A program made the position numbers and the translations under genes. Below, one piece after another: positions 35,797 through 38,215 of a stretch of DNA of 64,000 nt; the stretch's first letter is position 1; each line of letters begins with the position of its first letter. The DNA comes from Escherichia phage wV7, in sequence record NC_019505.1. The stretch is one strand, 5' to 3'. The notes under the pieces are model-generated. The model worked only from the letters and a program-made list of their open reading frames with translations. It did not search any database and was not told the DNA's origin.

Positions 35797-35926
35797 AGTT
35801 TTGTGAAAAAATTTTTAAAAAGTTTTGGGGAATTCTAGGGCAGGGAGGGGAAATCAAAGGATAGGATAATATATTATAAAGGGTAGAAACTAAATGATGT
35901 CTAGAGAGGCCTGGAAAGGCCTAGAT

Positions 35927-35960
35927 ACCAAAAAGCCCCAACCTTTCGGCTAGGGCTAAG
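35927..35960. repeat. Direct repeat copy 1 flanking internal-protein cassette
   Basis: ACCAAAAAGCCCCAACCTTTCGG shared exactly with 36486-36508; 2-3 mismatches in the following 11 nt. Confidence 0.7.
35930..35955 (-). terminator. Rho-independent terminator downstream of cassette internal-protein gene (repeat copy 1)
   Basis: Minus RNA CCCUAGCC-GAAA-GGUUGGGG followed by CUUUUU. Confidence 0.6.
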
Positions 35961-35964
35961 AATG

Positions 35965-36438
35965 TTATTTGATTTGTTTAGCAGACCAAATGCGGTCTTT
36001 AATAATTTTTTGGATGTCTTCAACATACTCAAGAGAGTGAGCATGTGGATTATCTTTGAAACTATAAGCACGAGCTAGTTTTTGGCCTTCAGTTTTGATT
36101 ACTAAAAGCTCTTTAAGGATAGCTTCATATTTGGAGATAATTCCTTTAACAATATTTTTCTCTTGTGCGACTTTAGGATCTGCTTTAGGAGCAGGTTTAC
36201 CCGAAGCCTTTGCAAAAGCAGCGCCAGTAGCAACTAAACTTTTCCAGGCCATACTAACTGCATTTCCCGTAAATCCTTCCGCTTTCATGTCGCGTGCGAA
36301 CTGGAATCGCGATTCATCAGAAGCATCTTTATAAGAATATTTACCCGCTGCAATGGCTGCTTTTGCGACAGCTTGAATTTCGGTGCTAGATGCTTCATTT
36401 AACACCGCTTCATTTAAAAATTGAGTATATGATTTCAT
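35965..36438 (-). CDS. Internal head protein-like, with capsid targeting sequence (cassette gene)
   Basis: 157 aa; N-terminus MKSYTQFLNEAV is a leader variant; minus-strand TATAAATA 40 nt upstream; flanked by near-identical terminator repeats. Confidence 0.65.
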   Translation of the reverse strand: MKSYTQFLNEAVLNEASSTEIQAVAKAAIAAGKYSYKDASDESRFQFARDMKAEGFTGNAVSMAWKSLVATGAAFAKASGKPAPKADPKVAQEKNIVKGIISKYEAILKELLVIKTEGQKLARAYSFKDNPHAHSLEYVEDIQKIIKDRIWSAKQIK

Positions 36439-36478
36439 CTTATTTCCTGTTTTAATTCGTGGATTTAATATACTACTA

Positions 36479-36486
36479 TATTTATA
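36479..36486 (-). promoter_or_regulatory. Late promoter (TATAAATA) of cassette internal-protein gene
   Basis: Minus TATAAATA 40 nt upstream of ORF start 36438. Confidence 0.6.
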
Positions 36487-36519
36487 CCAAAAAGCCCCAA
36501 CCTTTCGGTCGGGGCTAAG
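36486..36519. repeat. Direct repeat copy 2 flanking internal-protein cassette
   Basis: Same 23-nt core as 35927-35949. Confidence 0.7.
36489..36514 (-). terminator. Rho-independent terminator upstream of cassette internal-protein gene (repeat copy 2)
   Basis: Minus RNA CCCCGACC-GAAA-GGUUGGGG followed by CUUUUU. Confidence 0.6.
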
Positions 36520-36825
36520 CCTTGCGGCAACCTTGTCGGGGTTCCACCTGCTAAGGCAAGTGTTTGTACGAAACGCCGGGATTCGAACCCGGTTATTAAG
36601 CAGTTGACGCTACTCAATATTTTTAAAAGGCCATATCTCGACCATATCCGAACGTTCCGTCAAAAACGCTACTCGGCTTACGGCAAAGATATTTCCTCGA
36701 ATCGATAATTCGGTGCGCCGTTTCTACTGTGATGTAAGAGGGCATCAATAAACGCAAAGATTATTAACGCAATTCCTTACTCAGGGAACATCAGTCCGAC
36801 GACTTACCGGTAGCGACCCGGTTTC
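36515..36825 (-). ncRNA. Candidate small stable RNA region with tRNA-like T-arm (possible analog of T4 RNA species 1/2)
   Basis: About 310 nt non-coding stretch downstream of tRNA-Arg; perfect T-arm-like hairpin CCGGGTTCGAATCCCGG near 36566-36592; ends at a terminator; boundaries not determined. Confidence 0.3.
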
Positions 36826-37176
36826 TTAATATTCTTTTAAAGCATCAATCTGTTTACGGCGTTCACGCCATAAATCAATTGCTTCATACGCGGATTCAAC
36901 ATTTCGAATTGGACGGCATTTATATAAAGATTTGTGATTTTGATATTGCGTAGATAACGGAATTTTATCTAAAAGGTCTTTACGTTCAAAGTATTCGTAA
37001 CCATCTAAGCCAAATGAACGATTTTTGAGAAATTGCCAATGACCAAATTCGTTTTGAATATAAATATAATCCGCATGTTGATAAAGTAAATTAATTTCAC
37101 GAAATGAGATATGTTTTTCATATTCATTGAAGTAAAATGTTAAATCATGAACTACTAAATAAACATTACCTTTCAT
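36826..37176 (-). CDS. Hypothetical protein inside tRNA region
   Basis: 116-aa ORF with strong GAGGAAAA RBS, just downstream of tRNA-Arg. Confidence 0.5.
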   Translation of the reverse strand: MKGNVYLVVHDLTFYFNEYEKHISFREINLLYQHADYIYIQNEFGHWQFLKNRSFGLDGYEYFERKDLLDKIPLSTQYQNHKSLYKCRPIRNVESAYEAIDLWRERRKQIDALKEY

Positions 37177-37194
37177 ATTTTCCTCACTTATAAT

Positions 37195-37270
37195 TGGTCG
37201 AGGCAGTAGGGATCGAACCTACGACCTAGGACTTAGAAGGTCCTTGCTCTTCCTTCTGAGCTATGCCCCG
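37195..37270 (-). tRNA. tRNA-Arg (anticodon UCU), CCA encoded
   Basis: Hand-folded cloverleaf: acceptor CGGGGCA/TGCCTCG, anticodon loop CTTCTAA, T-loop TTCGATC. Confidence 0.8.
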
Positions 37271-37274
37271 TAAT

Positions 37275-37350
37275 TGGGGTGACCGATGGGAGTCGAACCC
37301 ATGACTACGAGAATCACAATCTCGAGTTCTACCAACTGAACTACGGTCAC
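37275..37350 (-). tRNA. tRNA-His (anticodon GUG), CCA encoded
   Basis: Acceptor GTGACCG/CGGTCAC, anticodon stem CGAGA/TCTCG with loop TTGTGAT, discriminator C; no encoded G-1. Confidence 0.7.
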
Positions 37351-37464
37351 ATTAATACCTACTCCAACAATCAAGATGTCTTCACACGAAATTAAGAGAA
37401 GAGTGATCAGTTCAACCCCTATAATCGCGTCAAGTAGATATTAATGTGACAGTTGTCACAAATT

Positions 37465-37539
37465 TGGCGGACGTGATAGGATTCGAACCTATAACCAATC
37501 GCTTAACAGGCGATCGCTCTGCCATTGAGCTACACATCC
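37465..37539 (-). tRNA. tRNA-Asn (anticodon GUU), CCA encoded
   Basis: Acceptor GGATGTG/CACGTCC (one G-U), anticodon loop CTGTTAA, T-loop TTCGAAT. Confidence 0.75.
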
Positions 37540-37543
37540 AAAT

Positions 37544-37630
37544 TGGTGGGGAGTGGTGGAGTCGAACCACCCGAGTCGCAATGACAATGAATTTACAGTC
37601 CACACCGCTACCTCTACGGGATAACTCCCC
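37544..37630 (-). tRNA. tRNA-Tyr (anticodon GUA), long variable arm, CCA encoded
   Basis: Acceptor GGGGAGT/ACTCCCC, anticodon loop CTGTAAA, variable-arm hairpin GTC-ATTGC-GAC, T-loop TTCGACT. Confidence 0.7.
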
Positions 37631-37642
37631 TAATTCATAATT

Positions 37643-37717
37643 TGGTGGCCCTGGGTGGAATTGAACCACCATCTGGCGATTATGAGTCGCTTGCTTGAAC
37701 CTTCCAGCTACAGGGCC
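37643..37717 (-). tRNA. tRNA with CAU anticodon (Met, or Ile by T4 analogy), CCA encoded
   Basis: Acceptor GGCCCTG/CAGGGCC, anticodon loop CTCATAA, T-loop TTCAATT. Confidence 0.75.
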
Positions 37718-37718
37718 T

Positions 37719-37794
37719 TGGTGCTGATTGACGGAATCGAACCGCCGACCTTCTCATTACAAGTGAGTTGCTCTACCTACTGAGCTAAATCAGC
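37719..37794 (-). tRNA. tRNA-Thr (anticodon UGU), CCA encoded
   Basis: Acceptor GCTGATT/AATCAGC, anticodon loop CTTGTAA, T-loop TTCGATT. Confidence 0.8.
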
Positions 37795-37799
37795 AAAAC

Positions 37800-37889
37800 T
37801 GGCGGAGGTGATAGGATTCGAACCTATGAATCGCCGGAGCGACTGCCGGTTTTCAAGACCGGTGCATTCAACCACTCTGCCACACCTCC
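37800..37889 (-). tRNA. tRNA-Ser (anticodon UGA), long variable arm, CCA encoded
   Basis: Acceptor GGAGGTG/CACCTCC, anticodon loop CTTGAAA, long variable arm, T-loop TTCGAAT. Confidence 0.8.
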
Positions 37890-37891
37890 AG

Positions 37892-37965
37892 TCTCCATAC
37901 AAGGATTTGAACCTTGGACCTCCTGATCCCAAATCAGGCGCTCTACCAAACTGAGCTACACGGAG
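37892..37965 (-). tRNA. tRNA-Pro (anticodon UGG), CCA not encoded
   Basis: Acceptor CTCCGTG/TATGGAG (two G-U), anticodon loop TTTGGGA, T-loop TTCAAAT; followed by CT then next tRNA. Confidence 0.75.
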
Positions 37966-37975
37966 TAAATTAAAT

Positions 37976-38049
<74 letters not shown>

Positions 38050-38054
38050 AAATT

Positions 38055-38141
38055 TGGTGCGAGAAGTGGGACTCGAACCCACAAGGAAATCATTCCGCAG
38101 CATTTTAAGTGCTGTGCCTTTACCAATTTGACCATTCTCGC
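38055..38141 (-). tRNA. tRNA-Leu (anticodon UAA), long variable arm, CCA encoded
   Basis: Acceptor GCGAGAA/TTCTCGC, anticodon stem CAGCA/TGCTG with loop CTTAAAA, T-loop TTCGAGT. Confidence 0.8.
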
Positions 38142-38142
38142 G

Positions 38143-38215
38143 CTGGGAATAAAGGACTCGAACCTTTGCATCTAGCAGTCAAAGTGCTATGCCTTACCAA
38201 CTTGGCTAATTCCCA
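38143..38215 (-). tRNA. tRNA-Gln (anticodon UUG), CCA not encoded
   Basis: Acceptor TGGGAAT/ATTCCCA, anticodon stem TAGCA/TGCTA with loop CTTTGAC, T-loop TTCGAGT; abuts tRNA-Leu. Confidence 0.8.

Follow-up and report, generated by a model that had tools for sequence, protein, structure and literature searches.

Few orphan RNAs in molecular biology are as old as rnaC and rnaD (species 1 and species 2 RNAs) of bacteriophage T4, which have been known since the 1970s. Their precursor is processed by RNase P and RNase E, and self-cleavage also takes place. T4 deletions removing the tRNA region are viable on laboratory hosts; this means that any function of the two RNAs is conditional. In T4, both were detected by northern blotting and RNA-seq as discrete, abundant RNAs that accumulate late in infection (PMC9697503). 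According to PMC3014915, they have no known function. When a T4-like phage was adapting to a semi-permissive host, rnaD acquired a convergent SNP (PMC12685909), and recent papers label rnaC and rnaD "regulatory RNAs" (PMC9697503, PMC12685909).

Here, the corresponding locus of Escherichia phage wV7 (NC_019505.1) is described. The window, i.e., the whole stretch of DNA that was analysed, comprises 64,000 nucleotides. The present analysis adds a comparative structural model, a wider distribution and an annotation correction to what was known from T4.

Identity with T4 rnaD and rnaC

A first-pass annotation had described about 310 nt of the window (36515-36825) as a non-coding stretch with a tRNA-like T-arm, which could be either the counterpart of the T4 species 1 and 2 RNAs or a new small RNA. 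On the minus strand, 36485-36829 was found to be about 97-99% identical to T4 rnaD, rnaC, the 3' trailer and the terminator. The T4 reference was NC_000866 (rnaD, 71053-71171; rnaC, 70908-71046), and the aligned T4 stretch ends at the terminator start. The parts of the wV7 locus and its neighbourhood are as follows.

37195-38215, minus strand: array of 11 tRNA genes (Gln, Leu, Gly, Pro, Ser, Thr, Met, Tyr, Asn, His, Arg), called by ARAGORN, with Rfam tRNA matches in agreement
36826-37176, minus strand: 116-aa ORF between tRNA-Arg and rnaD, from the ORF list; outside the RNAs
36712-36829, minus strand: rnaD (species 2 RNA), 118 nt, from alignment to the annotated T4 rnaD
36706-36711, minus strand: spacer of 6 nt (GAAUUA) between rnaD and rnaC, from alignment to the T4 annotation
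36567-36705, minus strand: rnaC (species 1 RNA), 139 nt, from alignment to the annotated T4 rnaC
36517-36566, minus strand: 3' trailer of the precursor, conserved with T4, forming hairpins in the minimum free energy (MFE) structure
36485-36516, minus strand: intrinsic terminator of the tRNA/rnaD/rnaC unit, from the terminator scan

Counted in the pairwise alignment, rnaC differs from its T4 equivalent by two substitutions in 139 nt, and rnaD by three substitutions and one indel in 119 nt. Judged from this alignment, the stretch is identified as the minus-strand orthologues of T4 rnaD and rnaC. Since the near-identity extends over both RNAs, the reading as a counterpart was correct, and the alternative of a new small RNA falls, the locus being aligned to annotated T4 genes. 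In other words, the element is already known, and its annotation in the T4 reference genome makes it ordinary as a discovery. The identity, the fold and the tRNA-like biogenesis, taken together and leaving function aside, are regarded as highly probable.

Genomic context

Over the 761 nt around the locus, identity with E. coli O157 typing phage 7 is 100%, and the same 761 nt are matched in 761 phage records, mostly of Tequatrovirus; the window is Tequatrovirus. The locus lies 3' of the tRNA array on the same (minus) strand, and the array is the presumed co-transcription unit of rnaD and rnaC. The position in T4 to which the locus had been likened is confirmed by the T4 record, in which rnaD and rnaC come directly after tRNA-Arg. 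The placement downstream of the tRNA cluster also held, but the RNAs are on the minus strand, to which all features described in the first-pass annotation belong, and the 116-aa ORF intervenes, unlike in T4.

This 116-aa ORF matches phrog_3355 (function unknown; E = 7e-52), and a Pfam search with it gave no match. It is present in T2 and in Mosigvirus Shf125875, and is missing from T4, JS10, VR25 and ESh18, in which tRNA-Arg abuts rnaD. Its TAA stop codon (36826-36828) overlaps the first bases of rnaD, so that the 5' end of rnaD must be made differently in wV7 than in T4. Searches of the flanking ORFs against phrog and Pfam revealed no informative family. In the closest GenBank record, only the flanking ORFs are annotated nearby, and nothing is annotated at rnaD or rnaC.

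The stretch had been described as ending in a terminator, and the terminator scan gave two terminator-like sites. The real one is on the minus strand at the low-coordinate edge, and consists of a 10-bp stem (36493-36516) with a GAAA loop and a U run. The other, on the plus strand at the end first given for the stretch (36806-36822), simply reflects hairpin H1 of rnaD as seen from the opposite strand. Between rnaC and the terminator, the trailer contains the hairpin CACUUGC-CUUA-GCAGGUG. A second copy of the terminator is located at 35934-35957.

Downstream of rnaC, a 157-aa ORF (35965-36438, minus strand) matches phrog_2280 (function unknown). It is flanked by a 36-nt direct repeat, 92% identical (35925-35960 and 36484-36519), with a terminator in each copy. 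A perfect T4 late-promoter motif, TATAAATA, is present at 36479-36486 on the minus strand, just upstream of this ORF, and in T4 no ORF is annotated between rnaC and e.8. The arrangement resembles a late gene cassette, complete in itself, that was inserted at the terminator.

The tRNA array itself contains 11 tRNAs versus eight in T4, the extra ones being Tyr, Asn and His, and the homing-endonuclease gene segB is absent from the inside of the wV7 array. The 114-nt spacer between tRNA-Asn and tRNA-His (37351-37464, minus strand) folds well (z = -4.4), and its conservation extends to 354 phage records, among them Jiaodavirus and Karamvirus. In the records examined, this element is located directly upstream of tRNA-His. 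Its outer stem, AUUAAUAUCUACUU / GGAGUAGGUAUUAAU, covaries, and in Kanagawavirus Q7622 the spacer is reduced to the outer stem alone, a 31-nt hairpin. The spacer may represent a third element, other than a tRNA, that is conserved in these arrays, or a leader or processing signal of tRNA-His. Among the phage loci fetched for comparison (numbered with L), it was found at the following positions.

L096 701-788: spacer element
L097 701-779: spacer element
L005 2140-2245: spacer element

Structure of rnaC

A fold prediction had been proposed as a check; the whole 345 nt of the locus folds far better than shuffled sequences (z = -5.9). Covariation in rnaC was analysed with 25 distinct sequences from Tequatro-, Karam-, Kanagawa-, Marfa-, Moon-, Gelderland-, Gapriver- and Mosugukvirus, and the fold comparison thus spans at least eight genera of Tevenvirinae. 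The elements of the structure in wV7 are listed below.

36698-36704 / 36569-36575, minus strand: P1, CGAUUCG / CGUUUCG, acceptor-like stem of seven positions with a tandem U.U
36628-36697, minus strand: long arm P2-P6, with the apical loop UUGACG at 36658-36663, from covariation
36594-36619, minus strand: P7 hairpin of 10 bp, with the loop CGUCAA at 36604-36609, from covariation
36576-36592, minus strand: T-arm, CCGGG-UUCGAAU-CCCGG, contiguous with the P1 3' strand and unique in the window

An A-rich linker is a further element. In this structure, 88.6% of the cells are paired in the 25 sequences versus 36-46% in slid controls, and double changes occur in 32 of the 53 pairs, a value reached in 0 of 500 shuffles; these pair counts are inflated somewhat, as the alignments (A6 and A9) were fitted to the models. 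The mature 139-mer alone has an MFE structure equal to the covariation model (z = -4.55). According to a reading of the predicted structures, about 20 of the 25 homologues fold alike independently.

The P1 stem shows two informative changes: its third pair switches from A-U to G-C in 20 of the 25 sequences, and the tandem U.U is replaced by U-A, U-A in Pectobacterium phage PM2. The ends of rnaC annotated in T4 lie 1 nt before P1 on the 5' side and 2 nt after P1 on the 3' side. P1 is followed by U-ACA in wV7, T4 and most lineages; U-CCA is found only in PM2 and the Marfavirus clade. In PM2, P1 is Watson-Crick over all 7 bp, and U-CCA comes right after it. The T4 rnaC annotation ends at UA.

The seven-position P1 stacks directly on the 5-bp T-stem, as in the "top half" of a tRNA. 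The hairpin CCGGGTTCGAATCCCGG, which the first-pass annotation had reported as perfect and T-arm-like, is real (36576-36592, minus strand; a single copy in the window, 0 expected by chance), and is the T-arm of rnaC. The middle pair of the T-stem covaries (U-A in 15, G-C in seven and A-U in one sequence), and the T-loop is UUCGAAU in most lineages. This means that rnaC, with P1 and a contiguous canonical T-arm, carries the tRNA "top half" and has no D or anticodon arms. These are replaced by the long arm and the 10-bp arm. In the long arm, changes on both sides are observed in 16 of the 20 pairs of P2-P5 and in four of the five pairs of P6, and divergent sequences retain its architecture. In P7, eight of the 10 pairs show changes on both sides.

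Two Kanagawavirus rnaC sequences (L003 2500-2660 and L006 1497-1657) have the T-loop UGCAUGC instead of UUCGAAU. In the same sequences, UGG just before the 3' strand of P2 is changed to UCG, i.e., GG to CG. These changes, a single event in a single clade, may be linked through a tertiary contact resembling the tRNA elbow.

Loop-loop complementarity

The loop of the long arm, UUGACG (36658-36663), is the exact reverse complement of the P7 loop, CGUCAA (36604-36609). Perfect complementarity of two given 6-nt loops would be expected by chance in about 1 of 4096 cases (our arithmetic). Across the homologues, the consensus of the loops is UUGRCG / CGYCAA. The loop-loop helix is 99.3% paired, with a double change from A-U to G-C in five sequences of one clade: in the Marfavirus clade, both loops change together to UUGGCG and CGCCAA, in a single evolutionary event. 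Searches of the homologues yielded no further independent covariation event for this pairing. According to this model, the loop-loop pairing could be an intramolecular kiss, for which the long arm would have to bend sharply, or could mediate dimerisation.

In the Klebsiella phage KaAlpha (L008 1426-1585), the complementarity between the tip of the long arm and P7 amounts to 15 nt, AAAGUAGUUGACGCU / AGCGUCAACUACUUU. The MFE structure of this RNA favours an extended duplex over the two hairpins, a hint that kissing loops may give way to such a duplex.

A duplicated 9-mer had also been reported for this region. The repeat, ACGCTACTC in the plus-strand sense, is indeed present at 36607-36615 and 36666-36674 (two copies versus 0.11 expected; 0 of 100 shuffles reached two). 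In the RNA sense, GAGUAGCGU makes up the 5' side of P5/P6, and again the 5' side of P7 together with half of its loop. Only Tequatrovirus and part of Kanagawavirus have the exact repeat; at these positions, the Marfavirus group carries GAUGACACG and GUGCAACGC. Because the exact repeat is lineage-specific, the conserved feature is the complementarity of the loops, not the repeat.

Structure of rnaD

The fold of rnaD has four parts: a 5' hairpin H1, a closing helix, an inner helix and a variable apical hairpin. H1 (36806-36822) has 5 bp and a 7-nt loop. In the closing helix, 36797-36803 pairs with 36713-36720, i.e., GUCGUCG with CGGCGCAC on the 3' side. With divergent matches included, 92.4% of the cells are paired versus 32-47% in slid controls, and double changes are seen in 16 of the 25 pairs, figures that lean towards the structure because the alignment was fitted to the model. 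All five pairs of H1 covary, and one pair of the closing helix switches from G-C to C-G. Some covariation is already seen in ten close rnaD sequences alone. Folding of rnaD alone was not better than that of shuffled sequences (z = -1.2).

The covariation shows that rnaC and rnaD are structured RNAs under selection for base pairing. Conserved structure among relatives, the absence of which had been named as the outcome that would speak against the locus, was thus found for both RNAs. A tRNA-like reading of rnaD was considered and rejected, since H1 is joined to the 5' strand of the terminal helix, with a polarity opposite to that of a T-arm.

Distribution of rnaC and rnaD

A covariance-model search had been proposed for this stretch. 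With Rfam 15 at the gathering threshold, the only matches in the window were tRNAs, and at E <= 10 the region 36400-37250 gave chance-level matches only; therefore rnaC and rnaD are without a family in Rfam 15. Purpose-built models for rnaC (R1, built from fetched representative homologues) and rnaD (R2) did match. R1 found the wV7 rnaC as its sole match in the window (169 bits, E = 3e-43), and R2 matched the wV7 rnaD with 129 bits (E = 1e-32).

A BLAST search revealed rnaC-like sequence in about 770-800 phage records. Full-length matches of R1 (96-173 bits) were obtained in Tequatro-, Gapriver-, Karam-, Kanagawa-, Marfa-, Moon-, Gelderland- and Mosugukvirus. In Karamvirus, Gelderlandvirus and the unclassified phage COW86c, rnaC is located between tRNA-Trp and tRNA-Gly, and starts a few nucleotides after the CCA of the upstream tRNA, like a tRNA gene. 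The wV7 rnaC, unlike these tRNA-flanked homologues of other genera, follows rnaD. Two pattern scans of IMG/VR and one metagenome scan gave no new diversity: most matches were chance or tRNA matches, and the true ones came from close relatives of cultured phages that were already known. No match to the region was present in the E. coli genome collection.

Strong homologues of rnaD were found in Tequatro-, Dhaka-, Gapriver- and Mosigvirus and in Yersinia phage P8. Dhakavirus ESCO10 lacks rnaC, and its rnaD runs directly into the same trailer; phage P8 likewise has rnaD without rnaC. These cases indicate that the two RNAs are independent modules. Conversely, rnaC occurs without an adjacent strong rnaD in some phages. 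Within the tRNA arrays of Karam-, Kanagawa-, Marfa-, Moon- and Mosugukvirus, R2 gave weak but consistent matches (17-29 bits) in other gaps. These elements share AAGUCGUC, UCCCUG and GGCGCA with rnaD. They usually come directly after tRNA-Asn or tRNA-His, and occur in genera thought to have rnaC only. The positions matched by R2 are as follows.

L005 1535-1633: divergent rnaD-like element
L007 402-500: divergent rnaD-like element
L008 470-568: divergent rnaD-like element
L010 952-1043: divergent rnaD-like element
L059 240-359: divergent rnaD-like element
L003 2166-2291: divergent rnaD-like element
L057 238-334: divergent rnaD-like element

Both RNAs are thus far wider in the tRNA arrays of Tevenvirinae than the T4 annotation suggests, and move as independent modules.

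Proposed biogenesis and function

The structure suggests a route by which the RNAs might be made. rnaD and rnaC would be co-transcribed with the tRNAs, and RNase P would cut at the 5' edge of the P1 stem of rnaC. The same cut would release rnaD with a short tail, which might then be trimmed to the closing helix, and the 3' end of rnaC would be trimmed back to P1. The literature on RNase P processing in T4 (1970s-80s) agrees with this cleavage. The loop-loop pairing might compact or dimerise rnaC. The mature rnaC would then occupy a factor recognising the acceptor/T-arm of tRNAs, or titrate it, with rnaD as a possible separate structured partner or regulator. Charging of rnaC, or tRNA mimicry on the ribosome, is unlikely, because U-ACA is present in most lineages and the T4 annotation ends with UA. 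Mature rnaC as a non-chargeable tRNA mimic that engages such a factor is offered tentatively, as the function that we favour. The comparative fold makes concrete and cheap tests available for the complementary loops, for the arms that covary and for the ends that resemble those of a tRNA.

A more specific version of the mimic seems unlikely to us: rnaC would be a distinct family absent from Rfam which, with the co-distributed rnaD family, titrates or decoys a host tRNA-recognising factor and serves as a host-range determinant of T4-like phages. The decoyed factor could be, e.g., a tRNA-targeting defence nuclease or a processing enzyme, and the body of rnaC would be locked or dimerised by the 6-bp loop-loop interaction. 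A decoy of another kind, in which the segment CUUUUAA of the T4-type linker would mimic the anticodon loop of tRNA-Lys, was rejected, since this segment is unpaired and variable among genera.

The main rival to the tRNA mimic is that the RNAs have no function in trans. They could be cis-acting modules for processing or stability of the tRNA operon, acting as structured spacers, RNase entry sites or 3' protection, or they could be decayed tRNA genes that persist as stable by-products. Such an origin would fit the location of rnaC and rnaD, always in or adjoining tRNA arrays, the tRNA-derived appearance of rnaC and the conservation of the trailer and terminator along with the RNAs, and it would also fit the viability of the T4 tRNA-region deletions. 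However, compensatory change has kept the detailed structure across at least eight genera, and the conservation includes arms irrelevant to recognition by RNase P as well as the two invariant complementary loops. Furthermore, rnaC of Karamvirus is internal to the array, not at its 3' end, and the accumulation of abundant discrete RNAs late in infection (PMC9697503) also counts against this rival. We regard this explanation as rather doubtful.

It seems still less probable, and on the whole quite improbable, that the RNAs are trans-acting sRNAs, regulating phage or host mRNAs, or each other, by base pairing. This would agree with the term "regulatory RNAs" of the recent papers (PMC9697503, PMC12685909) and with the complementarity of GAAACG at the 3' side of rnaD to the 3' strand CGUUUC of rnaC, observed in the examined lineages that carry both. 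However, the sequences compared revealed no conserved single-stranded seed to which a target could be assigned, and the rnaC loops with the highest conservation are each other's pairing partners. In the E. coli genome collection, the region is without a match. This reading is further opposed by the phages with a strong rnaD and no adjacent rnaC, or the reverse, although weak rnaD-like matches are present elsewhere in the same arrays.

Coding potential and annotation errors

The stretch had been said to contain no convincing ORF, and the overlapping ORFs are indeed only 34-50 aa long. That these small ORFs are protein-coding, as the hypothetical proteins annotated over the homologous region, e.g., in T2 (L088 574-702 and 708-845), would imply, is extremely improbable: the substitutions are overwhelmingly compensatory in helices, a 1-nt indel separates T4 and wV7 inside rnaD, direct RNA evidence exists in T4 (PMC9697503), and the rnaC and rnaD halves are independent in other genera, so that ORFs across the junction cannot be conserved.

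Equally remote is that the 3' 94 nt of rnaC are a genuine, unusual class-II tRNA gene. A tRNA-Lys(UUU) was called there in phage G29 by both ARAGORN and the depositors, ARAGORN calls tRNA-Phe(GAA) in Pet-CM3-4, the SonariX record has tRNA-Met annotated, and in wV7 the best tRNA-type match of Rfam, to tRNA-Sec at 36568-36660, is weak (16.6 bits against a threshold of 47, E = 2.8). One orthologous RNA would thus have three different anticodons; the orthologues, called Lys, Phe and Met, show no single anticodon identity, and the supposed anticodon is in a variable, unpaired linker. In addition, ARAGORN gave no tRNA call at 36515-36825 in wV7 and none at T4 rnaC, and the Rfam score is far below gathering. 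The internal "acceptor" strand, ACGGAACG, varies (ACGCUGCU in KaAlpha, GCGACGUG in the Marfavirus group) and is unpaired where the 3' strand changes; the 3' strand covaries with the extreme 5' end instead. As the anticodons disagree and the internal "acceptor" is not conserved, rnaC as a real tRNA was rejected.

The tRNA-Lys, tRNA-Phe and tRNA-Met calls on rnaC are artefacts, which arise because its 3' end is tRNA-like. Homologues of rnaC are mislabelled as tRNA-Lys (G29), tRNA-Met (SonariX) and, by ARAGORN, tRNA-Phe (Pet-CM3-4), and many phage records have "hypothetical protein" CDSs over rnaC and rnaD. The mislabelled loci are given below.

L004 1669-1762: mislabelled rnaC/rnaD locus
L007 1547-1641: mislabelled rnaC/rnaD locus
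L005 2547-2642: mislabelled rnaC/rnaD locus
L088 574-845: mislabelled rnaC/rnaD locus

The two RNAs are systematically unannotated or mislabelled in public records, and a covariance model would fix this.

Comparison with known RNAs

The wV7 rnaC resembles T4 rnaC (T4s001) in strand, in the order rnaD-rnaC-trailer-terminator 3' of the tRNA cluster and in the predicted fold. One of the two base changes turns a U-A pair of P7 into U-G in wV7. The neighbourhoods differ in that wV7 has an extra ORF upstream of rnaD, and an extra ORF and a duplicated terminator downstream. T4 rnaD (T4s002) has about 97% identity, the same position and the same fold, but the wV7 RNA is 118 nt long versus 119 nt in T4. 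The base after the 3' CACC is G in wV7 and A in T4; accordingly, the encoded CCA-like end of T4 is absent in wV7. In T4, rnaD abuts tRNA-Arg, whereas in wV7 the 116-aa ORF lies between them.

In comparison with tRNAs, rnaC has an end stem of seven positions contiguous with a T-arm and a loop of the TPsiCRA type, although this is a resemblance only. Its spacing in the arrays is that of a tRNA gene, and two lineages encode U-CCA. It differs from tRNAs in the absence of a D arm and an anticodon arm: its body is formed by a long closed hairpin and a short hairpin with complementary loops. Furthermore, P1 contains the tandem U.U, and ACA replaces CCA in most lineages. From the tRNA-like domain of tmRNA, rnaC differs in having neither G3.U70 nor a tag ORF; ARAGORN made no tmRNA call in the window, and Rfam gave no tmRNA match at E <= 10 within 36400-37250.

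A Rfam search revealed no match to a Y-RNA-like family even at E <= 10. Like YrlA and other Y-RNA-like tRNA mimics of bacteria and phages, rnaC is a non-coding RNA with a T-arm module, and is plausibly handled by enzymes that process or modify tRNAs. In YrlA, the Ro-binding stem is built from the ends of the RNA, with the tRNA-like module lying inside. In rnaC, by contrast, it is the ends of the RNA that form the acceptor-like stem.
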